Shown in pieces: positions 6,901 through 64,000 of a stretch of 64,000 nucleotides of DNA. The position numbers and the translations under genes are program-made. The notes below the pieces were generated by a model. It did no database searches. It worked only from the letters and a program-made list of their open reading frames with translations, and had not been told where the DNA came from. The stretch is taken from the IMG/VR virus record IMGVR_UViG_3300046311_000202, one strand, 5' to 3'. The first letter of the stretch is position 1; each line of letters opens with the position of its first letter. Source of the DNA: a virus (Duplodnaviria; Heunggongvirae; Uroviricota; Caudoviricetes).

Positions 6901-6932
6901 TTTGCACAAAACAAATAAAAGTTGTACTTTTG
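6901..6932 (+). promoter_or_regulatory. Bacteroidota-type promoter: -33 TTTG at 6901-6904 and -7 TActTTTG at 6925-6932, 20-nt spacer
   Basis: Matches TTTG-N20-TAnnTTTG, 21 nt upstream of the ATG at 6953. The same architecture recurs at 15502 and 20425. Confidence 0.6.
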
Positions 6933-15501: not shown

Positions 15502-15533
15502 TTTGGTTTTTACAAAAAAAAGTACTAATTTTG
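15502..15533 (+). promoter_or_regulatory. Promoter: TTTG at 15502-15505, 20-nt spacer, TAatTTTG at 15526-15533
   Basis: Same architecture as the promoter at 6901. The ORF-track TTG start at 15531 lies inside the -7 box. Confidence 0.6.
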
Positions 15534-20424: not shown

Positions 20425-20456
20425 TTTGGATATCACAAATAAAAACCTTAATTTTG
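20425..20456 (+). promoter_or_regulatory. Promoter: TTTG at 20425-20428, 20-nt spacer, TAatTTTG at 20449-20456
   Basis: Third copy of the same promoter architecture, 20 nt upstream of the ATG at 20476. Confidence 0.6.
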
Positions 20457-30502: not shown

Positions 30503-31054
30503 TTATTCAATTATTTTTATCTTGGCCCCAATTTTAACATGTTCATAAAGCTCATCCATCTCAGAATTACTAACAGCTATACATCCAGCCGTCCAATCTA
30601 TATACCTATGGAACATTCCAAATTTATACCATTTTTTCATCAAACCGTGTATCTTTATATCTCCACCGGCAGACTTATTATTAGCCGAGGCATTACTTAA
30701 GTCTTGTTCGTTAGGGTAAGATATGCCTAAATTTTTATAAGCTACACTATGAGGGTTCTTATCATTTATATAATAAACTCCCTCAGGTGTTTTCCCATCA
30801 CCTTGAAACTCTTTTTTACCATTTGGTCTAAATCCAAGAGCTACCTTATACTTTTTTAGTAACTCACCATCTTGATAAACATACATAGATCTTTTAGACT
30901 TATCTACCTCTATGTAGTCAATAACTGCATTTTTATCTAAGGGCTTATCAAAAAAGAAAAACCCACTAAATAAAAACAATCCTAAAAACACTATTAAACT
31001 CTTCATATTAATGTACTGCTGCATAAGACTCCCCTGTTTGGATATCAATCTCAA
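30503..31054 (-). CDS. L,D-transpeptidase with a YkuD-like catalytic domain and an N-terminal membrane anchor
   Basis: IHGLMKK...HRYIDWTAGCIAVSN matches the YkuD His...(S/T)xGC(I/V) catalytic signature. The N-terminus has a hydrophobic helix, LIVFLGLFLFSGFFFF. Confidence 0.6.
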   Translation of the reverse strand: MRLISKQGSLMQQYINMKSLIVFLGLFLFSGFFFFDKPLDKNAVIDYIEVDKSKRSMYVYQDGELLKKYKVALGFRPNGKKEFQGDGKTPEGVYYINDKNPHSVAYKNLGISYPNEQDLSNASANNKSAGGDIKIHGLMKKWYKFGMFHRYIDWTAGCIAVSNSEMDELYEHVKIGAKIKIIE

Positions 31055-32951
31055 TTTCTACAGGAAAGTTGTATTGTTTATTTACTCTATTTATAGACTG
31101 TTTAAGAGCCTCAATTGTTGAATCTATGTCTTCGTTCTTAACTCTTAATAAAACCTCGTCATGGGCTTGAAAAATGGGTCTAACACCACGTTTAATCATT
31201 TCATACACATAACCATCAAAGACTCTAACACCTGCTGACTGATTACAAGCAGAAAATCTATCTTTTTCAGAGGCTAAAAAGTAGTAAAAGTTTGTAATAG
31301 GGTTCCAAATCCAAGTTTTACCATCTACAACTATTACCTCTCTGTCTTCTGCATATTTCTTAACAGACCAGTTACGACCCCAATACCCATCGTATAAAAT
31401 CTTAGCATCTTTTGTAGTAAGACCAGTAGACTCTTTAAGCTTAGGTACTCCACAACCATAAGTTAAAGCATAGTTACCTGTTTTAGAAGTTGCTCTTTTT
31501 TTACTTACTTTTTCAAATTGCTCAGACAACTCTTCATCTTTATAAACCTTGAATATCTCAGGTAAGTCTTCTCTCTTTTTATCTTTTGTTTTATACCAAC
31601 GAAAGAAGTCAGACTCTTCTTGTGAGATAATACCACTTCTAACACCTAGATCCAAGTGGGCATCCCAACCCGGCCTGTTCATATCTTCAACATATCCAGG
31701 ATCATAAGGATAAATAGAAATCTGTTTCATCTTGTCTTCCAAACTACTAACATCCGAACCAATAAGCACAGAACCTTTAGGAGCTATGATTACACTACGG
31801 ATAAATTCTCCATAAGGGGCTGTCGGCTTTGGTAAATTAACAAACGGTTTGGCATGTTTCAACCTCAAAGTCTTAGTAAAACCGTGAGCATAAGCTACTG
31901 CATAACCATTCTCATCAGCTCTTTCTAAGAAGCCCTTCAAGTAACCTGCTCTGTGTGTTACTACAGATAAACCATCTAAGTGCTCAATAGCCGGCTCCTT
32001 TGCACCTAAAGCTAATACACTCTTACATAACATCTTTTCTTTATCTCTAACTTGTGGCACTTTACCATTTCTACCGTCTTCAAACAATAAAGGTTTCCAA
32101 CCAAGGCCCATCAACCAATCTTTTACTTGTGTAGGACTTCCGGCATTAGGTTCTTCATAACCTGTAATCATGGTAACCTCACCATCATAATCTTCTCTGA
32201 TACCATTTTGTTCTAAGATCTCAAACCATCTAGCTCCGGCAACACTAAGACTACCATCTTTTTTATAACAAACCTTAGGCTTTGTCAAAGACTTCTTGAT
32301 AGGTATTTTTGGCATAGCAGCTTCTAATAAAGCTTTCTTTTCATTCTCAATACCTTGTAGATAGTCTAAGTTTTTTTGACATTGTTCTACATCAATCAAT
32401 ATTTTATCTTCCTCTTGTATCTTAAGGCATGTTAGCTTAAAATTAAGGTAGCTGATAATTCTTACTATATCTCTAGGATCTTGGTAGATCTTTTTAAGAT
32501 AGTTGTATTGTTTAACCCAAAGGTTAGTATTAATCTTAACATCTTCTTCTACCCTGTTTCTGTATTCTTCTATAGAAAGGTTTTCCCAGTTGTCGATCTT
32601 CGGTTTAGGTACACCGAACTCTTCTCCCCAAGAAGCTAAACCATGGTCTCTTTGGCCTCTTTCTGGGTACAAGTACCAAGACAATCCTAAAGAGTCTATT
32701 ACACTAGCTGTAACTTTTATACCAAGTATCTTTTCATACAAGGGTACATCAAACCTAACTATGTTATGGCAGACCAATGTGTTGTCAGGGTTAGTCAAGA
32801 TATTACGCATATCCTCATAGTCAACAGTAGATTTAACTTTCCACTTACCAGACTTATCCATCCAACTTATTCCCATACACCAGATCTTTGTAGACTGATC
32901 TACAAGTCCATCTGACTCTGCATCTATTACGTATATCTTATCTAAATTCAT
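31008..32951 (-). CDS. DNA polymerase, family A, with an N-terminal 3'-5' exonuclease domain
   Basis: Exo I is VIDAESDG. Motif A is DVSSLEDK. Motif B is RATSKTGNYALTYG. Motif C is HDEV. Confidence 0.85.
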   Translation of the reverse strand: MNLDKIYVIDAESDGLVDQSTKIWCMGISWMDKSGKWKVKSTVDYEDMRNILTNPDNTLVCHNIVRFDVPLYEKILGIKVTASVIDSLGLSWYLYPERGQRDHGLASWGEEFGVPKPKIDNWENLSIEEYRNRVEEDVKINTNLWVKQYNYLKKIYQDPRDIVRIISYLNFKLTCLKIQEEDKILIDVEQCQKNLDYLQGIENEKKALLEAAMPKIPIKKSLTKPKVCYKKDGSLSVAGARWFEILEQNGIREDYDGEVTMITGYEEPNAGSPTQVKDWLMGLGWKPLLFEDGRNGKVPQVRDKEKMLCKSVLALGAKEPAIEHLDGLSVVTHRAGYLKGFLERADENGYAVAYAHGFTKTLRLKHAKPFVNLPKPTAPYGEFIRSVIIAPKGSVLIGSDVSSLEDKMKQISIYPYDPGYVEDMNRPGWDAHLDLGVRSGIISQEESDFFRWYKTKDKKREDLPEIFKVYKDEELSEQFEKVSKKRATSKTGNYALTYGCGVPKLKESTGLTTKDAKILYDGYWGRNWSVKKYAEDREVIVVDGKTWIWNPITNFYYFLASEKDRFSACNQSAGVRVFDGYVYEMIKRGVRPIFQAHDEVLLRVKNEDIDSTIEALKQSINRVNKQYNFPVEIEIDIQTGESYAAVH

Positions 32952-32952
32952 A

Positions 32953-33441
32953 TTATTTTGTTATTTTTGCTAATTCCTCTTCGTATGCGTAGTGAGCATC
33001 TAGCTCTGTAGTAAACCTTCCTAAATACTTAACTCTTCCACAAATAGAAATACGTGACACCCACTTACGTGAAGCTTTATTCCAATAAACACCTGTGTAC
33101 TTACTTGTAGAAGGTAAGTGTTTTTTATTAGCATTTTCTCTAAATGATATTACCTCTAAATTTACCGATCTATTATCAAGTCTATCAAAATTAATATGGT
33201 TTACAACTGTAATACGACCATTTGGTACATGCCCTAAAAAAGCACTTGCTACTAAGATATGAACACTATAACTCTTCATTTTTTTATCATTCCATAAGTT
33301 AACAATTAAGTACTTATTTGAGCTAAGACTTTGTTTCATTATCTTAACCTTACCAAACCTAAGACTTCTAACTCTACCTAAATCTGAGACTTCATAAAAA
33401 CCCTCATAATCTTTTACTGGCAACCAATTTTCTACTATCAT
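32953..33441 (-). mobile_element. Free-standing HNH homing endonuclease with NUMOD4, HNH and C-terminal AP2 domains
   Basis: WLPVKDYEGFYEVSDLGRVRS is a NUMOD4 signature. There is an HNH region with conserved His/Asn. YTGVYWNKASRKWVSRI...GRF is an AP2 domain. It lies immediately downstream of polA. Confidence 0.7.
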
Positions 33442-40257: not shown

Positions 40258-40329
40258 AATTATAATATTTACTCTGCAAAGGTAAGCATAATTATAATAC
40301 CATGCAAACTTTTTTTAAATTATTTTTAT

Positions 40330-41400
40330 TTAATTTGATAAAGGGGCTTTAATAGTAGGGTGCGATTGATAGTTTTCAATCTTAAAAAAATCAGGTCTAA
40401 ACCTGTCTATCTTTTCACTAAATGATATATCTCCTACCAACTTTGCATCTGTTAGGTAATGGTATTCGTCTAGGTAAACAAGGCTTGGTAATTCAAACCC
40501 CTCTCTTCCAATTTGTTCTTTAGCTTGTTCAATATGATTTGAATACAAATGTACATCTCCAAGATTACCAATTAATTGGTCTGGGATCATATCTACTTCA
40601 TTTGCTATAATCTCTAATAGTAAACCATAAGAAGCAATGTTAAACGGTAACCCTAAAAATGTGTCTACTGAACGTTGGTTCCACATTAAAGAGATTGCTC
40701 TGGTTGGGATAGTATGCTCGTATTGGTTAAAATTAGAACCATCTATAGCTTCATATTTTTTAATATACAAATCAATTCTTTGTTCAAAACTCAACTTTCT
40801 TGTATAAACTTGAAACCCATAATGACAAGGTGGTAGAACCATTTGGTTCAATTCCCCAACATTCCAAGCATTGACCATTAATCGTCTTGAGTCTGGATTT
40901 ATTTTAAGGTCATTGATTAGGTTTTGGATTTGGTCTACTTCTACTTCACCTTCTTTATAACCCCATTCCAATATATCTTTTTGTTTCCACTTTCTCCATT
41001 GCTTACCATAAATTGGACCTAAATCACCCCACTTCTTAGCAAACTTATCATCGTTCTTTATCTTATCAATAAAATCAGTCATTGATAAAATCTTTTCAGG
41101 TTCATTACCAATCATTAATAATAGATAATTTTTATAAGCATCTCCATTCCAAATGTTACACCCATTATCAACCAAGTACTTAATATTTGTATCCCCACGT
41201 AAGAACCAAAGTAGCTCAGTTACAATTGTTTTCCAAGGCATTTTCTTAGTTGTAAGCAGAGGAAATCCCTCTGACATATTATGTCGTATTTGTCTTCCGA
41301 ATACTGAAATGGTTCCTGTACCTGTCCTGTCTTCTTTAACTACACCATTATCAATAATGTCTTGTAGTAATTCTGTATACTGTTTGTCTAACTTATTCAT
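40330..41400 (-). CDS. thyA: Thymidylate synthase of the ThyA family, with an insertion of about 30 aa
   Basis: Has DRTGTGT, ELLWFLRGDTN, DLGPIYGKQWR, NPDSRR, AWNVGEL..LPPCHYGFQ (the catalytic Cys), QRSVDTFLGLPFNIASY (Asn at the dUMP-specificity position) and GDVHLYSNH. Confidence 0.85.
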   Translation of the reverse strand: MNKLDKQYTELLQDIIDNGVVKEDRTGTGTISVFGRQIRHNMSEGFPLLTTKKMPWKTIVTELLWFLRGDTNIKYLVDNGCNIWNGDAYKNYLLLMIGNEPEKILSMTDFIDKIKNDDKFAKKWGDLGPIYGKQWRKWKQKDILEWGYKEGEVEVDQIQNLINDLKINPDSRRLMVNAWNVGELNQMVLPPCHYGFQVYTRKLSFEQRIDLYIKKYEAIDGSNFNQYEHTIPTRAISLMWNQRSVDTFLGLPFNIASYGLLLEIIANEVDMIPDQLIGNLGDVHLYSNHIEQAKEQIGREGFELPSLVYLDEYHYLTDAKLVGDISFSEKIDRFRPDFFKIENYQSHPTIKAPLSN

Positions 41401-47754: not shown

Positions 47755-47908
47755 TTTGATTTTTTTGTTTTTATTAATTATTAAAGGTAAAAAAAAGTAC
47801 CCCCTAATTAAAAGAGATACTTATTATTGAGGTGCAAAGATAATAAATTAATTCTGTAAAACAAAATTAGTTAAATCTTTTTTTCAATAAAATTTTTTTA
47901 ACTTTAGT

Positions 47909-48213: not shown

Positions 48214-48360
48214 ATTTTGATAGTCTTTCCTATCAGTCACTCGTTAGATTTTGCTCTCTGGACTATATGAGTTAGCCCCGTTAACCGTAAGCATTTCGGC
48301 CCGTCTGCAACTTAACATAAACCTGTGACGAGTATTCCTTATCGTTTATGCCTTGCTAAG

Positions 48361-48434
48361 TGGACCAAGTATGACTCGAACATACGACCTTTGCATTATG
48401 AGTGCACTGCTCTAACCAACTGAGCTATAAGTCC
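48361..48434 (-). tRNA. tRNA-Met (anticodon CAU), elongator or Ile2-like
   Basis: Acceptor GGACTTA/TTGGTCC pairs 6 of 7. D-arm GCTC-AGTTGGTTA-GAGC. Anticodon loop CTCATAA. T-arm GTATG-TTCGAGT-CATAC. No CCA encoded. Confidence 0.75.
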
Positions 48435-48459: not shown

Positions 48460-48730
48460 GGCGTGTTAGGCTGCAAATCTTTTTTGCACCCCACCAAGTG
48501 TGTAAACGTTGTCGTTTAGTTTTGAAATTAATTCTCCCTATTACCTACTTATTGCCAATCAATACCTGTCACCCCCATGACACCGGCTGTTTAAGGCACA
48601 ACCGATAAAGCCTAGGTCTCTGATTTCTCAGCGACTCCACCACCTTGTTTATAGTTCAAGGAAACTTTTGTGGAGGTGGGGGCATCGAAGCCCCGTCTTG
48701 TTCAATTTCAATAATATATCAACAAATCAT

Positions 48731-48976: not shown

Positions 48977-49789
48977 TTAGTTAACTGCTTTTACAAAAGG
49001 TAACGAGCCTCCAGAGTATGTGTTTGGCAATCTACCGTTCCACTTTTTAATAGCTTGCTCTTGCAATAGCTGAGGTGTAATACCACCACTTCTAATTTTA
49101 TTTTGCTCTGCTTTTAGTAACTCTAACTCATTTTTCTTCTTTTGCTCTGCGATCTCTTGATCTAAAACTGAAATGTTTGTGTTTACTTCATTACGGCTAT
49201 CAATCTTAGCTTTTACTTTGCTAGAGAAGTCAAGGTTTAAGCTGAAACTAATTAATTCTAAACCTGCTTTTTCAAACTCTTTTGTTACTATATTTTGAAC
49301 ATACTGCTCAAATCTTAGTGAACCTCCATTAGCCATTAATTGTTCTGTTGTATAACTTCTTGATGCTTCTTTTATAATATCGTAGATCCTTGGCTCCAAT
49401 ACGTTATCTTGTAAGGCACTCATAAAGTCATCTCCTGATCCTAATCTTGAATTTTGAAATACTACATCTACAACTTTACTTTGAATTACTTTATAAGAGT
49501 ACAAAGGCTTAGACGTAAAGGCTGTGTTATCAGCGGCTTTTACTTGTAATGTTCTGTCTCTACCCTCATCGTCAGTGAATTGTCCACGTTGTTCCCATGC
49601 CGGCACTTGAAATAACTCAGTCCCAGGAGAAATTGTAGATACTCTACCTTGCTGTTTAGAATAGTCATCCTTGCCATTCTTACCATAATTTTCCATCAAT
49701 ACTCCATAATAGTTTGGAGCAACTCTCTCGCAAGAGGTAATACCCATTGCTAATACTAATCCTAAAAACAATACTAAAACTTTCTTCAT
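48977..49789 (-). CDS. Lipoprotein with an SPFH/band-7-like region and a C-terminal coiled coil
   Basis: Signal peptide with lipobox (LAMGITSC). Central region resembles prohibitin/stomatin-like domains. K/E-rich coiled coil at the C-terminus. Confidence 0.5.
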   Translation of the reverse strand: MKKVLVLFLGLVLAMGITSCERVAPNYYGVLMENYGKNGKDDYSKQQGRVSTISPGTELFQVPAWEQRGQFTDDEGRDRTLQVKAADNTAFTSKPLYSYKVIQSKVVDVVFQNSRLGSGDDFMSALQDNVLEPRIYDIIKEASRSYTTEQLMANGGSLRFEQYVQNIVTKEFEKAGLELISFSLNLDFSSKVKAKIDSRNEVNTNISVLDQEIAEQKKKNELELLKAEQNKIRSGGITPQLLQEQAIKKWNGRLPNTYSGGSLPFVKAVN

Positions 49790-50247: not shown

Positions 50248-50943
50248 TTATCCAAAATATTTTTTATAAATTTTATGGTACTCCTCAATTTTCTTTGCAG
50301 TCTTATCAAAAGATTTTAAGAAAGCCTCTGCTCTTTTCTTAGAATAAGGTGTAGGAATACGCTCAATATCTCCGGTTAACCTTAACGGATACTTTTCTTG
50401 ACCATTACCTTTCCTATCTAATAAAATAACCCCCGAATATGCAATATGCTCTCCCTCTAATTCTCTTTGATAAGCATACAAAGTTGTCTGTTGGTACTCA
50501 TCTCCTCCGTAGAAAGCTTTCTTAGTCTTAATGGCACCGGTTTTTAAATCATCAATCACAAGATTACCCTCAACATCTAGATATTCCCTATCTATAAACC
50601 CTTGGATAACATAAGAACCTCTGTCTACTACGATCTCAACCTCATACAAGGCATTTGCAGGCCTTTCTATGCTACGGATAGTATCTACATCAAAGTCAGA
50701 AAGATCGGATGTCTCAGTGTTTGTTTCAAACAATACACCACATTTACCTCCGTACTCTGTAAAGATGTTACCTTCGCCTCGGATACCTAAAAAATAATTA
50801 GCAAAAAACTCTCCCTTGTATGCTTCTTCGTTAAAGGAATTGTATGCTGAATAACTTAGTTTTGGTTTCCCAACATGTTGGGGGTATTTACCCCCCTCAT
50901 TCTCATAGACTTTTGGTAAGTCTAGCATTTTTACTTCTGCCAT
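50248..50943 (-). CDS. PD-(D/E)xK nuclease, RecB/Cas4-like
   Basis: GFIDREY (motif II) and VIDDLKTG (the hhhDxKTG motif III). Confidence 0.5.
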   Translation of the reverse strand: MAEVKMLDLPKVYENEGGKYPQHVGKPKLSYSAYNSFNEEAYKGEFFANYFLGIRGEGNIFTEYGGKCGVLFETNTETSDLSDFDVDTIRSIERPANALYEVEIVVDRGSYVIQGFIDREYLDVEGNLVIDDLKTGAIKTKKAFYGGDEYQQTTLYAYQRELEGEHIAYSGVILLDRKGNGQEKYPLRLTGDIERIPTPYSKKRAEAFLKSFDKTAKKIEEYHKIYKKYFG

Positions 50944-52022
50944 TATATTTTATTTAAAAGTTCTGTGATCTCTGCTTTCTTTACTTCTTGTTGTAGAGGG
51001 TTGTCTGACTTGAACATCTCTGTGTTGATATACAAATTAACTAAGATATCTTCTACAATAGTTCTATCTTTTTTAGTTAACTTTTTCTTCTTCAACAAAT
51101 CTGTAAGTTCTTGCTTAGTCTCAGGGAGAATCTCTGTTGCATTAACTAACTTGTGTAGTATAGGCAACTTCTCAAATAAGATATCTTCCGGCTCCCTTGT
51201 GTCAACCTCTTCTACTTTAGTGTCTACTGCCTTAGCAATAGTGTTTTTCTTAGGAACTAACTTTACTTCTTCTTTTGGTGCAGTGCTTTCTTTTACAGCA
51301 GTTACCTCATCAAACTGAAATACTCTCTCTCCCTTGATCCTACGAACTACATTGAATGTAGCAATAGTATCTAGTGTACAATACTTAGCAATTCTTTCTA
51401 CTTCTCCTCTGTAATAAGCATTACCTACTTCATCTCCAACTAAGTCTACTTTACTAATTGGGATATTTAAAGCAGTACACAATGCTTGTAAAGAGCTTCC
51501 GGCACCAGAGCCACCCATCTTCCAAATGTCTGCATTGGTACACATGTTTCTGCTTTCCCAAGGTTTTTGGTGTGCTGTGTCTAACAATACCGGTATTTGA
51601 ATGCCGTTGATTACAAATCTCTTGCATAAGAAAGGGTAATCAAAGTACTTAGCAGCATGCCCTAGTAATCTGTAGTTTTTACCATCTGCACCATCTGACA
51701 TTCTCTGCAAGAAGTTTCTAAGGTCTGTAAGCAAAGCTGCTTCGTCTTCTCCGTAAAACTCTTTGTACTTAGCTTTGTCGTCCCCGATCATAAATACAAG
51801 ACTGACTGCACAAACTTTACTGAACTCTGCATATAAAGATGCCATCTTTTCCCAAGAGTCTGCTAACTCCTCGAAGAAAGGTACTTCTCCTGCTTGTTTG
51901 TTCTTGTACTCCCATGCTGATTGCCATTCCGGAGATAAGTCTTCATACTTCTCTACGATACGTACTGTTTCAATGTCGATACCTACAAAATGTTTAGTAG
52001 GAATGTCTCTTAATAGTTTCAT
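50943..52022 (-). CDS. DEDDy-type 3'-5' exonuclease, DnaQ/PolB-exo-like
   Basis: Exo I is VGIDIETV, Exo II is YFDYPFL and Exo III is YCTLDTIAT. A -7 box lies at 52049-52056. Confidence 0.55.
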   Translation of the reverse strand: MKLLRDIPTKHFVGIDIETVRIVEKYEDLSPEWQSAWEYKNKQAGEVPFFEELADSWEKMASLYAEFSKVCAVSLVFMIGDDKAKYKEFYGEDEAALLTDLRNFLQRMSDGADGKNYRLLGHAAKYFDYPFLCKRFVINGIQIPVLLDTAHQKPWESRNMCTNADIWKMGGSGAGSSLQALCTALNIPISKVDLVGDEVGNAYYRGEVERIAKYCTLDTIATFNVVRRIKGERVFQFDEVTAVKESTAPKEEVKLVPKKNTIAKAVDTKVEEVDTREPEDILFEKLPILHKLVNATEILPETKQELTDLLKKKKLTKKDRTIVEDILVNLYINTEMFKSDNPLQQEVKKAEITELLNKI

Positions 52023-52097: not shown

Positions 52098-52478
52098 TTA
52101 AGGTATAAATTGTAAAGATTTATCTTTGCTGAAAACAAACCTTACTCCGTACTGATCCTCATCAAAAAGTTGAACTCTTACAAGGAACTTAGTATCTCTT
52201 TCTTTGTACAAAGCCGTTGAATATGTCATTCCCCCCTCTGTTGCACCTCTCTCTACACTACTTATCAAATCAAAGTACATAACTGATCCTTTGTGTAAGT
52301 ACACTTTTATAGAGGAAGTGTTTGCATAGTTATAGAAAATAGTATTCTCTCCATTGTCTCTAGTAACTTCTCCTTTGTTAATAAGCACTAACTCTGAGTA
52401 CTTCTCTCTAAATTGCTGTTGTGAATAACCTGTTGTTATTGTAAAAATCAACAATATAATAAATAATAACTTCTTCAC
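52098..52478 (-). CDS. Secreted protein of 126 aa with a signal peptide
   Basis: Signal sequence MKKLLFIILLIFTITTGYSQQ. Confidence 0.45.
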   Translation of the reverse strand: MKKLLFIILLIFTITTGYSQQQFREKYSELVLINKGEVTRDNGENTIFYNYANTSSIKVYLHKGSVMYFDLISSVERGATEGGMTYSTALYKERDTKFLVRVQLFDEDQYGVRFVFSKDKSLQFIP

Positions 52479-52480
52479 CT

Positions 52481-52669
52481 TTATAGTATTTCGTATTTAA
52501 AATCACTTGTTTCTCCTATTGAGTCTCCTACTTCATCATTATGGAGGGTAAGCCTTGTACTCTCTTTATCTTCGAGTAGTGAGATAAACCACTCGTACTC
52601 TTCTTTGTCAGCATGACTATACCACATGTCATCTTCTATCTCTATTATTGCCTCTAATTTTATTCTCAT
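52481..52669 (-). CDS. Hypothetical acidic protein of 62 aa
   Basis: ORF. Confidence 0.35.
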   Translation of the reverse strand: MRIKLEAIIEIEDDMWYSHADKEEYEWFISLLEDKESTRLTLHNDEVGDSIGETSDFKYEIL

Positions 52670-52838
52670 AGCCTATTCTTTATAAAATTAAAGTTAATAG
52701 TTTGTACAAGCCTAAACCAAAAGTCATCCCTGCTACGAAATAACTAGGTGCTGGGTTGTTTCCGTTTTCTTTTTGTTTTTTTGCCCCATATAGGTTTACT
52801 CCCATCAAAGTAAATTGTAATAACACTGATCCCATAGC

Positions 52839-53153
52839 TTATTTAATTAAATCAATATAAGTTGGTGCCGGAGCAAGTTCTAAAGTAAACTCATCATACT
52901 CATCGTAAGGTTTACCAATTGTTAAATGATAATCATCAGGCTCGCCATAAATCTCTTCAAGAGAAGATAGTAATTCTTTTGTTGTCATATACTCTCCGTT
53001 ATCTTCAAGCTCTTCTGTTCTGCATACCCACGAAAAGCGTGTGTCTAAGTTAATATCAGCATCTACTAATTGTAGAGACTCTTCTAGTGGTAAGAAATCT
53101 AATTTCTCATCCAACATTTTCTGTGCAAATTTTTGCTTTAATTTTTCTTGCAT
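52839..53153 (-). CDS. Hypothetical acidic protein of 104 aa
   Basis: ORF. Confidence 0.4.
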   Translation of the reverse strand: MQEKLKQKFAQKMLDEKLDFLPLEESLQLVDADINLDTRFSWVCRTEELEDNGEYMTTKELLSSLEEIYGEPDDYHLTIGKPYDEYDEFTLELAPAPTYIDLIK

Positions 53154-53156
53154 AAT

Positions 53157-53387
53157 TTATACTACTTTCATTAATTTAATATATTGTACATCTTTCTTAC
53201 CTAATAATTTACCTATCGCTTGCCCTAGCCAATTGTTCTTGACTAGCACTATGGCATAGTTTGTATTTATTTTTTCTACTTGCTCCTCTGTAAGGAACCC
53301 CTCCCTAGCTAAAGCCTTTACGATAGCCTCTTTAGCATTATTGTAGTTCTCTAAATCTTGTGTCAACTCTAAATCTTGTGTTGTCAT
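53157..53387 (-). CDS. Hypothetical protein of 76 aa
   Basis: ORF. Confidence 0.4.
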   Translation of the reverse strand: MTTQDLELTQDLENYNNAKEAIVKALAREGFLTEEQVEKINTNYAIVLVKNNWLGQAIGKLLGKKDVQYIKLMKVV

Positions 53388-53399
53388 TTTTCTTAACTT

Positions 53400-53612
53400 T
53401 TATATTTGTTTTATTTTAACTACATAAGAATTAAAGCCGCTTGCTATGAATGTTTTCTCTGACATAGATAGTACATTAATTTCATAAAGATCCTCTTTGG
53501 CAAATTTATTTTCTTCAAAGTGCTTTAAATCTTCCTCTGTAATTTTTTCAGTTCCAGAACCATCTCTTCTTATTCTAGAAATAAATTCTAATTCGTGGGG
53601 GTACTTTTTCAT
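53400..53612 (-). CDS. Hypothetical protein of 70 aa
   Basis: ORF. Confidence 0.4.
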   Translation of the reverse strand: MKKYPHELEFISRIRRDGSGTEKITEEDLKHFEENKFAKEDLYEINVLSMSEKTFIASGFNSYVVKIKQI

Positions 53613-53615
53613 ACC

Positions 53616-54191
53616 TTATTTGTTTTTAAGTTTATACCCATTTGGTGCTATATTAGATTTGAATGTATCTACTTGTTTCCATACAGGTTTTGATGTTGTC
53701 TTGTACTTTATTTTATTTTGTAATCCTAACTCGCACAACTCCCAATCGTAGGCTTTTATAATCTCTTTGTTTAAGAGGATATCCAATACCTTACCTGCTC
53801 CTTGCCATGATAAAAAATATGCGTAGCAGCTTATCTGTGTTCCTAAATTGAATACATCAAAGGTTGTAAAATCTATATTAGTTAGATCAAAATCATAATC
53901 GCTTAATTCTATGTCATCCTCTAATACTAGCATGTTACACTTAGTACTATACGATAGATGAAGTAAAGCTAAGTGGGAGACAAACGTAGCCATAACGGCT
54001 TTCTGATCTATGTCCCAGTCGTAATAGTCTACCTTACTGAACAAACTTTCTTCCATGTCTTTTGTGACTTCCCTAGGCTTAACTGCATTAAAAAAAGTAT
54101 AATTCAACCCTAGGGAATCCATTACCTCTTTTGTATGCTGTCTTCTATCCTTGTCCTTTTGTAAAGATAGTACTTGTATTTCATATTCCAT
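53616..54191 (-). CDS. Glycosyltransferase family 25-like protein, short paralog
   Basis: N-terminal YEIQVLSLQKDKDRRQHTKEV and ATFVSHLALL (GCALSH-like) and LVLEDDIELSD (ILEDD motif) are characteristic of GT25 Lic2B/LgtB-type transferases. Confidence 0.5.
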   Translation of the reverse strand: MEYEIQVLSLQKDKDRRQHTKEVMDSLGLNYTFFNAVKPREVTKDMEESLFSKVDYYDWDIDQKAVMATFVSHLALLHLSYSTKCNMLVLEDDIELSDYDFDLTNIDFTTFDVFNLGTQISCYAYFLSWQGAGKVLDILLNKEIIKAYDWELCELGLQNKIKYKTTSKPVWKQVDTFKSNIAPNGYKLKNK

Positions 54192-54196
54192 AAATC

Positions 54197-55012
54197 TTAT
54201 CTAATTTTTTCAAATTGCCAACCATTAACTATACTTGTATTGTGTATAACCTTCTTAGGGTAGTACTTCATTTTAATAAAGTTCTCAGGTATTCTAACAA
54301 TAGAACTCGTTACTTCATCCCACTCAGAAAAGGTATTACTTATAGTTAACTCTTCGCTTAGTGTTGGTACCCTATCTTCATTTTTAAACTGCTTGAATAT
54401 AGACTTAGTTAAACAGACTTGATTAAAAGGCATTATCTCTAATTGTACATCTGCTGCATACTTAATCTTAGATGTGTTTTTATAGAGCCACTTTGCACTT
54501 TGTCTTGTAAGTAAATAAGAGTGTGCGGCATACTGCTGAGGGAAATGTGGAACCGGCTCTGCTATATTACTTGTCAACATTCTACTAGTAGCTATATCAT
54601 CTGCGTACTTTCCATACCAACAAATACCCCAATCTAAATTGTCTAGCTCTGCTCTTATTTCTTCAAAGTTGTATTTTTTAATATTGTCTGTGATAAACAC
54701 ATCATCCTCTAAAAATAAGCCTACTTCCTCCTTTGAATCTAAAAAATGTTTCCAAGCCTTTCTGTGAGATAATGCACAACATAATACTCCTAGTGTTATA
54801 TAACCTGCCGGATCAAAAAACTTATCTGATAGATGTTTATCTATAAAGTCTAAGTCATTTTCATAATCTACATGGTCATAAGCCTCCACTATATTAATAC
54901 CACAATCTAGCTGTTCCTCTAGTAACTTTACTCGCTCTCTTCTTTTAGTTAACCTAGCTAAAGACACTACATATATTGAATCTGCTCCTACTTGTTTCCT
55001 AAAATTATTCAC
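54197..55012 (-). CDS. Glycosyltransferase family 25 (LPS or LOS glycosyltransferase-like)
   Basis: SIYVVSLARLTKRRERV, GVLCCALSHRKAWKHF and GLFLEDDVFI match the conserved GT25 blocks. Confidence 0.65.
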   Translation of the reverse strand: MNNFRKQVGADSIYVVSLARLTKRRERVKLLEEQLDCGINIVEAYDHVDYENDLDFIDKHLSDKFFDPAGYITLGVLCCALSHRKAWKHFLDSKEEVGLFLEDDVFITDNIKKYNFEEIRAELDNLDWGICWYGKYADDIATSRMLTSNIAEPVPHFPQQYAAHSYLLTRQSAKWLYKNTSKIKYAADVQLEIMPFNQVCLTKSIFKQFKNEDRVPTLSEELTISNTFSEWDEVTSSIVRIPENFIKMKYYPKKVIHNTSIVNGWQFEKIR

Positions 55013-55214
55013 TCCACCTTTTTTATAGTTTATTTACTCCTCTGTGTATCCATTTTCTTCAGTCCAGTTTTTTGCCCACTCTATCATATAGTCTAAACCG
55101 TAAACCTCCTCAGCTTCAAAATTTGCTGTGATATAATCTATTGAGTCTTCTAGTAATGAAGAGGGTACTACTCCCGATATAAAATCTTTGTCTTGTTGTA
55201 CTGATGTTCTCATA

Positions 55215-55709
55215 CTAACTGATTGTTGAATGTCTCTCTTTTGCTAAGACAGATATTGATTGATAAATACTTCTTTGTACATCTTGATAATTCTGATAAG
55301 ATAAATCTACTAGGTAGAAGAACCTCTTTAACTGCTCTATCAAAGTGATACGCTCAATATAATAAGGATGTGAGTACACAACTTTCTCTGCTGCTGATTG
55401 TGATATCTTTTCTTCGCTATGCTTTATAAGATACTCAATAGCCTCACTCTTGATACGCTTTCTCTGTGCCTCCAAGAACTCAAAGTTCTCACGGAAACAT
55501 CTAATCTTACTATAATATCCGGCTAGGTAAACTAGGTACCCATTGAATCTTCTCTTTAGGTCTTCAAGTGCATCTAGGCTTTCTGTACCCCTAACATACT
55601 CTCGCACCATTTCATCCATAACCCCTAGAGTTTTCTTAGTCTCTAGGTAATCTTTCTCACTAAACTTTACTAGATCCGATACTTTAAGTATACTATTTGC
55701 TACTGACAT
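55215..55709 (-). CDS. Hypothetical protein of 164 aa
   Basis: ORF. A 59-aa acidic ORF follows at about 55016-55213. Confidence 0.45.
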   Translation of the reverse strand: MSVANSILKVSDLVKFSEKDYLETKKTLGVMDEMVREYVRGTESLDALEDLKRRFNGYLVYLAGYYSKIRCFRENFEFLEAQRKRIKSEAIEYLIKHSEEKISQSAAEKVVYSHPYYIERITLIEQLKRFFYLVDLSYQNYQDVQRSIYQSISVLAKERHSTIS

Positions 55710-57408: not shown

Positions 57409-57638
57409 TTGTTATCTTGTTAAATTCTACGCAAAGATATTACTTAATTTTTAATTGTGCAAACTTTTTTTAACTTATTTTAAATTAAAATCTGCTAACA
57501 TTCTATTTTTCTCCCCATAAGAGTACCCAACCCCTAGTTCTGCTACTAGGGATTTGGCTTTATCTCTTGTTAAACCTCTCTTAATAACCTTACCAAAAGT
57601 GTTGGTCTTAATATTAAACTCAAAGACAATATAGTTCA

Positions 57639-58768: not shown

Positions 58769-59188
58769 TTAGTTTTTTATAAGTAAAGTTTGTACATCAA
58801 TACTCTCTCTGTTATACTTCAAGTTCTTCATCCCGAGCAACCTTTCGTTAACTCGTTGGACTACAATTTTTCTATCAATATCTAACTCTTCGTAGTTATT
58901 GTATAAGTTTTTTGGCAACCCTCTGAAACTATCCGAGAAATCTGTTATGTTAAAATCCCTCTCAACACACTCTGCCGTAAGTTCTTCGTACCTCTCTTGT
59001 AGGTATCCTAACTTGTCGTAGAAAAATTTAACATGCCCAGTACCTAAAGTAAAACTGCTAGGTATATTTTTAACAACGGCTTTCCCCGACTTGATAGCGT
59101 TTGGAATTCTTAACAACTCTATACGCTCTTTAATTAAGTGGGCATCGCAAAGTTCAATCGCTCTAACCCCAACAGATATTCTAGTCAT
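58769..59188 (-). CDS. Hypothetical protein of 139 aa
   Basis: ORF with a -7 box at 59225-59232. Confidence 0.45.
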   Translation of the reverse strand: MTRISVGVRAIELCDAHLIKERIELLRIPNAIKSGKAVVKNIPSSFTLGTGHVKFFYDKLGYLQERYEELTAECVERDFNITDFSDSFRGLPKNLYNNYEELDIDRKIVVQRVNERLLGMKNLKYNRESIDVQTLLIKN

Positions 59189-59275
59189 AACTTATTTGTT
59201 TTTATGTGTTACTATTAACTTGTACAAAGATAACTATTATTTTGTAACTACCAAAACTTTTTTTTAATTATTTTT

Positions 59276-62037: not shown

Positions 62038-62167
62038 TTTTTAATGTTTGCCTACTATTGTATAGGGTTTCGGCTATCCCTCTTTTGTTTGACAAATGTA
62101 CGATTAAGTTTCTAATCTACCAAACTTTTTTTAATTTATTTTTGCCTCTATAAAAAAGCTAAATATT

Positions 62168-63952: not shown

Positions 63953-64000
63953 TGCTGTTTTTTTATTGTGGCTTTTTAGGGGGAGAATTAACCCCCCCCC

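Follow-up and report, generated by a model that had tools for sequence, protein, structure and literature searches.

An optional two-gene cassette of family-25 glycosyltransferases in a hypervariable slot of an uncultured phage genome

We analyzed two adjacent genes for family-25 glycosyltransferases (GT25), here named GT-L (271 amino acids (aa)) and GT-S (191 aa), in a 64,000-nt stretch of phage DNA with ~34% GC (IMG/VR record IMGVR_UViG_3300046311_000202; hereafter the window). The pair is an optional accessory cassette of two genes that occupies a hypervariable slot within the replication/early arm, and its members are distant homologues, not recent duplicates. It adds to a known kind, the phage GT25 genes, and both of its subfamilies are virus-restricted. 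Judged from their folds and conserved residues, GT-L and GT-S are predicted to be active, soluble GT25 enzymes of the GT-A type with intact Mn2+ (E-D-D) and UDP-contact residues. In the explanation that we tentatively and narrowly favor, their acceptor would be a glycan of the host cell envelope; this acceptor is the weakest step of the explanation.

GT-L is encoded at 54197..55012 (-) with a GTG start and GT-S at 53616..54191 (-) with an ATG start. The GT-L stop and the GT-S start are 5 nt apart on the same strand, the next open reading frame (ORF) begins 3 nt past GT-S, and the two genes are a predicted co-transcribed pair. Independent metagenome gene calls gave the same 271-aa and 191-aa products. 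Against Pfam PF01755 (Glyco_transf_25; gathering cut-off 24 bits), GT-L scored 63.7 bits (E = 2.8e-17) over profile positions 3–197 of 199, and GT-S scored 45.9 bits (E = 8e-12) over the N-terminal half only (4–101 of 199). The original prediction, made from the sequence alone, of two adjacent GT25 genes was thus borne out for both ORFs, at scores above the cut-off and far beyond chance. PF01755 was present in all 69 retrieved homologues of GT-L and GT-S. Both proteins also matched PHROG 2835, 'glucosyltransferase' (E = 1e-13 and 3e-6), a group of the moron/auxiliary category that includes the glycosyltransferase of Burkholderia phage AP3, an unrelated phage; NCBIfam and PADLOC searches returned no matches. 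Three N-terminal motifs had been named for both proteins. VxSLxxxxxRR (GT-L V15–R25, GT-S V7–R17) and LEDD (GT-L 101–104, GT-S 90–93) were found in both, and (G/A)xxxSH fits GT-S (A68...S72-H73) but is not exact in GT-L, where the block C78-C-A-L-S82-H83 starts with Cys.

The AF2 (alignment-based) models had pLDDT values of 90.9 for GT-L and 93.4 for GT-S. GT-L consists of a complete GT-A domain (residues ~12–208) and a ~60-aa C-terminal beta-hairpin extension; GT-S has a canonical GT25 N-terminal half and a shortened, subfamily-specific C-terminal half that ends in an invariant SNIAPNGY. In Foldseek searches of the PDB, the top matches of both proteins were the only three solved GT25 enzymes, namely the COLGALT1 GT2 domain, Mimivirus R655 and a bacterial beta-1,4-galactosyltransferase (PDB 8xc8/8xlz/8xkd), with E values from 3e-12 to 2e-7, and other GT-A families appeared only at E >= 7e-5. 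For GT-L the COLGALT1 GT2 domain ranked first (E = 3e-12), followed by R655 and the bacterial GT25; for GT-S the order was COLGALT1, the bacterial enzyme and R655, with TM values of 0.68–0.73. Among viral models (BFVD), the top matches of GT-S were all viral GT25 proteins. At the level of sequence profiles the two proteins diverge: GT-L matched COLGALT1 at 78.8 bits (E = 4e-21) versus 39 bits for the bacterial beta-1,4-galactosyltransferase, and GT-S preferred the bacterial enzyme (E = 1e-7) and R655.

COLGALT1 has an unusual E-D-D Mn2+ site (E435/D437), UDP contacts at R354, S415 and C412 and acceptor-side residues W495, D522 and D570; R354, S415 and E435/D437 are essential by mutagenesis (PMC12003778, PMC11897130). 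In GT-L, residues R24, C79, S82, H83, E102, D103, D104, W128, H164 and Y166 are invariant across the family, and R24, C79, S82 and E102/D104 align to COLGALT1 R354, C412, S415 and E435/D437. The GT-S family keeps S72, H73, E91, D92, D93 and D149 without exception and R16 almost without exception; R16, S72 and E91/D93 occupy the COLGALT1 metal and UDP positions, and Thr69 stands where COLGALT1 has the essential C412. On the acceptor side, COLGALT1 W495 aligns to an Ala in GT-L and the sequence alignment stops before D522. GT-L D188 (YAAD) and GT-S D149 (AYDWE), both conserved, fall at the same alignment position, which makes them plausible equivalents of D522, an equivalence based on spacing alone. 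Both proteins thus share with the COLGALT1 (GLT25D1) GT2 domain and R655 the E-D-D site and the UDP-binding Arg and Ser (GT-L also the Cys), and differ from COLGALT1 in being single-domain, with no structural GT1 domain, and in their ~20% identity. These results indicate that the donor side is intact in both proteins and that the acceptor side is family-specific. The placement in GT25 and the presence of the catalytic residues, on which the original prediction depended, were therefore confirmed by the profile searches and by the metal and UDP residues kept in both proteins.

The two genes had been described as paralogs forming a duplicated pair, a view that did not survive closer comparison. 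BLASTP of GT-L against GT-S gave no significant similarity; profile–profile comparison related them with 96.9% probability (E = 1.7e-10) at ~21% identity, and the hidden Markov model (HMM) of each subfamily scored 24 and 0 bits on the partner protein. They belong to two separately conserved GT25 subfamilies. Searches of marine metagenomes retrieved 45 GT-L homologues, the closest 42 at 35–66% identity, and 24 GT-S homologues at 43–69% identity. Since the GT-S homologues (168–192 aa) all but one measure 185–192 aa, the short length of GT-S is a conserved feature and not a truncation. In 50,697 GenBank phage records, tblastn with GT-L found one match, in Burkholderia phage AP3 (28% over 65% of GT-L), and with GT-S none even at E <= 1; megablast of the GT region against GenBank phages also gave no match. 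No close GT-L relative was found in 185,579 bacterial and archaeal species genomes, where the best cellular relatives reached 38% over ~100 aa or 25–28% across the domain, and an HMM census of 1.84 billion representatives yielded 11 GT-S clusters at E <= 1e-30. All known members of the two subfamilies come from sequences of uncultured marine viruses, distributed across at least three or four unrelated phage backbones. Apart from the phage population of the window and the contig L013/L093 described below, a contig carries one of them alone, the two separated by kilobases, or a tandem of two GT-L-type genes.

The GT25 genes of other marine phages and giant viruses (S-SCSM2R ORF303, P-SSM2 gp275, S-SKS1, uncultured Caudovirales and Mimiviridae) are likewise virus-encoded and marine. 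They are often multicopy and lie near carbamoyltransferase, 2-oxoglutarate (2OG) oxygenase and methyltransferase genes, and S-SCSM2R ORF303 and P-SSM2 gp275 are annotated as 'cell-wall synthesis and modification' genes. In contrast, GT-L and GT-S are separate subfamilies with no tblastn relative in those isolates and no larger glycan island around them. Several composite viral GT25 architectures were observed: fusions to OGFOD2-like/2OG-Fe(II) oxygenase domains (453–478 aa; L001, L005–L007, L023 and L024), fusions to PLOD-type GT domains (735–856 aa; L053 and L078/L081), and a ~445-aa family (L027–L038) that joins a GT-L-like domain to an unannotated C-terminal domain. In L106/L107 (9992–10557) two overlapping ORFs (87 + 112 aa) take the place of an intact GT-S homologue, which suggests a frameshift or pseudogene in that lineage. 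The phage-like 65-kb contig L004 (JGI 3300047393) carries a GT-L homologue and a second GT25 of 190 aa, together with genes for a bacteriorhodopsin-family protein, a ferritin, a PAP2 phosphatase, a flavodoxin-like protein and a long thymidylate synthase.

We retrieved relatives of the window by a scan seeded with an SPFH lipoprotein encoded near the GT genes. Two syntenic relatives, L141 (128 kb) and L129 (131 kb), have core genes 72–94% identical to those of the window, and comparison with them defined a hypervariable accessory slot at 52481..55213 (-) between two conserved anchors. The upstream anchor (55215..55709 (-), 164 aa), which has no Pfam or PADLOC match, is 93% identical at the amino acid level in L141 and 81% in L129. 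The downstream anchor (52098..52478 (-), 126 aa) is 49% identical in L141 and 42% in L129 and has a signal-peptide-like N-terminus, which reads MKKLLFIILLIFTITTGYSQ. The window slot measures 2736 bp and holds, in order, a 59-aa ORF, GT-L, GT-S and small ORFs of 70, 76, 104, 51 and 62 aa; none of the small ORFs has a Pfam match. In both relatives the slot is flanked by the 164-aa gene on one side and the 126-aa and exonuclease genes on the other, and the GTs are absent: the L141 slot (1205 bp) contains unrelated small ORFs and the L129 slot (435 bp) no ORF. No GT25 gene was found within ±10 kb of the SPFH gene in 25 close SPFH-bearing relatives. It is these GT-free relatives that identify the pair as an optional cassette.

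Among more than 100 related viral loci, adjacent GT-L and GT-S genes were found in two places, the phage population of the window and a single IMG/VR contig (L013/L093). The pair on that contig is 66–68% identical to that of the window, its genes overlap by 4 nt, and beyond the pair L093 has just two weak matches to the window. Taken together, the window slot and L093 suggest that the two GT genes, and no others, make up the mobile unit, and this shared mobile unit is the best evidence that the two GTs work together in this phage. Base composition gave no signal of recent horizontal acquisition (GC 0.331 for the pair versus 0.341 ± 0.019 for the arm).

The contig of origin measures 126,746 bp, and our gene-content searches covered the window and ~17 kb of flanks viewed beyond it (~81 kb). 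One arm of the window (1–26190 (+)) encodes very large virion proteins. The other (26245–64000 (-)) carries replication and nucleotide-metabolism genes and many small ORFs, including a ThyA homologue, a deoxynucleoside monophosphate (dNMP) kinase, a dUTPase/DCD and a ribonucleotide reductase (RNR). Among isolates, Cellulophaga phages phi17:2 and phi4:1 come nearest (29.5% aa identity in a 1904-aa virion protein), and crAss-like gut phages are more distant. The Bacteroidota promoter consensus TTTG-N17-23-TAnnTTTG matched 11 times in the window versus 4.0 ± 2.1 expected (2.7-fold), a count reached by 0 of 100 shuffles. Nearly all matches lie directly upstream of genes in the correct orientation in both arms, for example at 6901–6932, 15502–15533 and 20425–20456 on the plus strand and at 40277–40308, 47835–47865, 59225–59255 and 62093–62124 on the minus strand. 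The consensus is more enriched in the relatives L129 and L141 (z 5.8) than in the window, and is not enriched in control regions of Cellulophaga phi17:2 and Flavobacterium immuto. Given the enrichment of Bacteroidota-type promoters and the identity of the nearest isolates, which are Cellulophaga and Flavobacterium phages, the host is probably a member of the marine Flavobacteriia, or more broadly of the Bacteroidota. The motif was uninformative for classifying the hosts of the other GT-bearing phages, the known Cellulophaga and Flavobacterium phage controls being unenriched, and direct protein comparison with the control phages gave no host for them either.

The consensus match nearest upstream of the pair, at 57432..57463 (-), is a candidate start of the transcription unit containing GT-L and GT-S. 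A scan for sigma-70 promoters and terminators at 52–57.5 kb found nothing above chance. The early-region placement in the original prediction is plausible, since this match lies upstream of the pair, and small ORFs and replication genes surround the pair on the minus-strand arm.

To our knowledge, all characterised GT25 enzymes are inverting UDP-hexose (galactose or glucose) transferases, and GT-L and GT-S would be expected to work in the same way. It had been suggested that sugar-nucleotide genes be sought elsewhere in the genome; neither these nor LPS (lipopolysaccharide) genes were found in the ~81 kb examined, and the donors would thus be host UDP-sugars. Because the genes travel together, the two enzymes would most likely act sequentially on one acceptor, building a short beta-linked glycan, and the earlier idea of a two-step activity is consistent with a pair that moves as a unit. 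The benefit of the cassette would be conditional rather than essential. Candidate acceptors are the LPS or lipooligosaccharide (LOS) core, or a lipid-linked O-glycan, of the probable Flavobacteriia host, and an altered surface of the infected cell could lead to superinfection exclusion or to less loss of progeny on cell debris.

Several lines of evidence are in keeping with such an envelope acceptor. Characterised bacterial GT25 enzymes act on LPS/LOS glycans, and the Pfam label of the family is 'LPS biosynthesis protein'. GT-L and GT-S share with the LgtB/Lic2A/LpsA-type enzymes the Pfam family, a single GT-A domain of ~200–270 aa and the VxSL...RR, S-H and E-D-D blocks, and a bacterial GT25 is the best profile match of GT-S in the PDB. 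Hypervariable early-arm accessory slots are a typical home of host-interaction genes, and the location of the pair fits a conditional function of this kind. In other backbones, NodU/Nol-type carbamoyltransferase genes lie 0–1.6 kb from GT-S or GT-L relatives, and GT1-like, nucleotidyltransferase/mannose-P-isomerase and Methyltransf_24 genes are also nearby; together these neighbors are a glycan-building toolkit. Similar glycan-gene islands occur in Pelagibacter phage HTVC008M and cyanophages. The carbamoyltransferases (Carbam_trans_N + C) were seen in four arrangements beside a GT-S or GT-L-like gene (L096/L101, L097/L108, L099, L106 and L024), and their homologues at ~30% identity are the 'Nol-like carbamoyltransferases' of cyanomyoviruses and HTVC008M. 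The window phage has none, and 9 of 10 recurrent immediate neighbors tested in the other backbones lack a Pfam domain.

A number of observations weigh against an envelope acceptor. The GT-S family has a median isoelectric point (pI) of 5.1 (17 of 17 below 7) and the GT-L family one of 6.1, the two window proteins themselves having pI values of 5.1 and 5.9, whereas generic GT25 proteins are basic (median 8.9, 68% above 8.5 among 74 representatives), as expected of enzymes that work at an anionic membrane; the window proteome is also acidic (median 5.8), so the contrast may be partly compositional. No transmembrane or obvious membrane-binding segment was found in either family, and no LPS, flippase or ligase genes lie nearby. 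The 185,579 species genomes hold no close GT-L homologue that would suggest capture from a host LPS locus, and the profile of GT-L is far nearer to the protein-acting COLGALT1 than to the bacterial beta-1,4-galactosyltransferase. Compared with the bacterial LPS/LOS enzymes, the window proteins are only 16–18% identical, acidic and devoid of LPS gene context, and the acceptor half of GT-S is shortened and subfamily-specific. The narrower assignment to the Lic2B/LgtB-type LPS/LOS subgroup was accordingly not supported: GT-L has no close bacterial relative and matches COLGALT1 better than the bacterial enzyme, and the locus has no LPS gene context. If the target were a strain-specific surface glycan, the presence of each subfamily in several phage backbones would be unexpected, and the fact that in most other phages the subfamilies stand single or kilobases apart speaks against obligatory two-step action.

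O-glycosylation of a protein, either a phage (virion) protein or a cytoplasmic host protein, is an alternative almost as probable as the envelope glycan. Protein glycosylation has precedents in COLGALT1, in the virions of chloroviruses and mycobacteriophages and in bacterial glycosylating effectors, and R655 is probably a protein-acting precedent of the collagen type. The COLGALT1 GT2 domain is the best match of GT-L in both profile and fold, with R655 also among the matches, and the PBCV-1 capsid glycosyltransferase A64R and Legionella LtpM appear among weaker fold matches. Both families consist of soluble, acidic proteins so far found in viruses alone; GT25–oxygenase and PLOD–GT fusions and P4H-like oxygenases share genomes with relatives of GT-L and GT-S, and a GT-S-type domain is fused to a radical-SAM domain in a 562-aa protein (P0111). 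Yet the partners of a collagen-type system were not found: the ~81 kb contain no 2OG oxygenase or hydroxylase, lysyl hydroxylase included, and no frame of the window has a collagen-like Gly-X-Y run (>= 5), so a collagen-like acceptor in the window was rejected. Moreover, the essential acceptor-side W495 of COLGALT1 is replaced by Ala in GT-L, the pair lies far from the structural module, and no candidate acceptor gene was transferred with it. Relatives with near-identical core genes lack the cassette, which implies that no essential virion maturation depends on it. A more specific version, in which the pair is a mobile, virus-restricted two-enzyme module acting on a cytoplasmic macromolecule (a phage or host protein, with no hydroxylase) and on neither DNA nor LPS, seems to us unlikely. 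An acceptor that is soluble and not a protein, such as a small molecule, a nucleotide second messenger or RNA, modified for anti-defence or metabolic takeover, appears quite unlikely. The acidic, soluble and virus-restricted character of the proteins would suit it, as would the variable early-arm slot of a genome that has an anti-defence gene, a Tad6 homologue just past the window; NodU-type carbamoyltransferases, whose characterised members tailor small-molecule sugars, accompany the relatives. We know of no GT25 precedent for such acceptors, however, and there were no PADLOC matches and no linked biosynthetic genes in the window.

Hypermodification of DNA, in which the pair would add one or two sugars to hydroxymethylated pyrimidines and thereby evade restriction like the T-even glycosyltransferases and the 5-hydroxymethylcytosine glycosyltransferases of metaviromes, is very unlikely. 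It draws on the position of the pair in the arm with the ThyA homologue, dNMP kinase, dUTPase/DCD and RNR, on a long ThyA homologue near GT-L/GT-S relatives in L004, L103 and L106/107, and on the ~45 kb of genome that lie outside the ~81 kb searched. Phages are documented to carry sequential glycosyltransferases that build di- or trisaccharides on 5-hydroxymethylcytosine, and GT-A enzymes encoded close to ThyS homologues have been flagged as candidates (bioRxiv 10.1101/2023.12.21.572611). The ThyA of the window (40330–41400 (-), 356 aa) is nevertheless canonical, with all thymidylate synthase (TS) motifs intact: the catalytic Cys, the PFNIASY Asn, PIYGKQW, DxHxYxNH and the C-terminal KAPxxx. 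It matches bona fide TS at E = 7e-73, and the annotated TS of Flavobacterium 'immuto' phages, in which neither GT is present, shares 59% identity with it. We therefore rejected a hidden dUMP/dCMP hydroxymethylase, and the co-occurrence of TS and GT genes reflects a shared gene pool, the immuto phages having the same TS without the GTs. This ThyA is unusually long and has two insertions, one of ~35 aa following the catalytic-Cys strand and one close to the C-terminus; the long type is found in the immuto phages and, at 56–64% identity and up to 412 aa, in several GT-bearing metagenomic phages. No 5mYOX/TET enzyme, C5-methyltransferase (C5-MT), hydroxymethylase or other oxygenase was found in the window and its ~17-kb flanks, and a cassette that is present or absent would be useless without a pathway to hydroxymethylated bases. 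The proven DNA-modifying GT-A enzymes are JGT/TarP-like, carry R...DDD...EDY/F motifs and cluster with base-modifying enzymes (bioRxiv 10.1101/2023.12.21.572611). GT-L and GT-S resemble phage DNA glycosyltransferases (the T4 alpha- and beta-enzymes and the JGT-like GT-A and GT-B enzymes of Pyle et al. 2023 that act on 5-hydroxymethylcytosine) in being phage-encoded and located among replication/early genes, where such enzymes sometimes act sequentially. Those enzymes, in contrast, are GT-B or JGT/TarP-like GT-A proteins that need an adjacent generator of hydroxymethylated bases, not found here; the two window proteins are acidic and match GT25 structures only, with known DNA glycosyltransferases absent among the top PDB and BFVD matches. 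DNA modification had been ranked the less likely function from the start, and the canonical ThyA, the lack of an oxygenase or C5-MT in the region searched and the dissimilar fold agree with that ranking.

That only one partner is catalytic, GT-S (or GT-L) being a non-catalytic companion or both genes decaying passengers, is the least probable of these alternatives, and we consider it highly improbable. COLGALT1 pairs a structural GT-A domain (GT1) with a catalytic one (PMC12003778). GT-S is short of about a quarter of the typical GT25 domain, matches Pfam over its N-terminal half only, has Thr at the position of the essential C412 and is split in the L106/L107 lineage. Against this, its short length is kept in nearly all 24 homologues, and its E-D-D and S-H residues, candidate base Asp and C-terminal motif are invariant, which implies purifying selection on the active site. 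In other phages GT-S often occurs without a nearby GT-L, and AF2 gave it a compact model of high confidence.

Few auxiliary genes are as common in marine phages as glycosyltransferase genes, and those of GT25 are routinely labelled "LPS biosynthesis"; in the literature we found no report testing the acceptor of any phage GT25. The present locus is a clean minimal case, with two enzymes, no glycan island and natural cassette-less relatives that can serve as controls at a defined slot. The identity of the acceptor would guide how GT25 annotations in marine viruses are read, whether as pointing to a remodelled cell surface, to glycosylated virion or host proteins, or to another function. If the acceptor is host LPS, as the label implies, the finding would be ordinary. 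If it is a protein, and neither DNA nor LPS, the pair would be the first protein-directed GT25 system in a bacteriophage, with a role in host takeover, anti-defence or virion shielding, and GT-S would be an unusually small (~190 aa) functional GT-A enzyme. GT-S would be of some enzymological interest as a compact GT-A scaffold.

Other features of the genome were also recorded. The SPFH/Band-7 protein that seeded the scan (48977–49789 (-)) has a lipoprotein signal peptide and a lipobox (LAMGITSC). It is widespread, with 247 IMG/VR relatives, and its gene is among the very few common to the window and the otherwise unrelated GT-bearing L001 and L093. A functional link to the GTs, considered for its position near GT-S in three backbones, was rejected, as 0 of 80 IMG/VR SPFH loci had GT-L or GT-S within ±10 kb. 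A tRNA-Met (48360–48434 (-)) adjoins a match to Rfam RF04321, the permuted (two-piece) tmRNA, at 48466–48727 (-), which scored 51.1 bits against a gathering score of 47. ARAGORN called no tmRNA at this position; the match comprises a T-arm/CCA acceptor piece followed by a coding piece that ends ...GCAGCC-UAA, a typical '...AA*' tag end. The 647-aa family-A DNA polymerase (31008–33441 (-) region) matches only the C-terminal part of PHROG 17, its gene is directly preceded by an HNH/NUMOD4 homing-endonuclease gene, and the gene for a separate 3'-5' exonuclease (DNA_pol_B_exo2) lies at a distance of 18 kb, at 50943–52022 (-); the two may form a split polymerase arrangement. About 10 kb past position 64000 (L011/L012), the genome encodes a GroEL-type chaperonin, a thioredoxin, the Tad6 (anti-Thoeris-type) homologue and a Kyano_Gp96 domain protein. 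The small ORFs of the early arm also include, at 58769–59188 (-), a T4 endonuclease V-type pyrimidine-dimer glycosylase (Pyr_excise) that is 76–88% identical in relatives.

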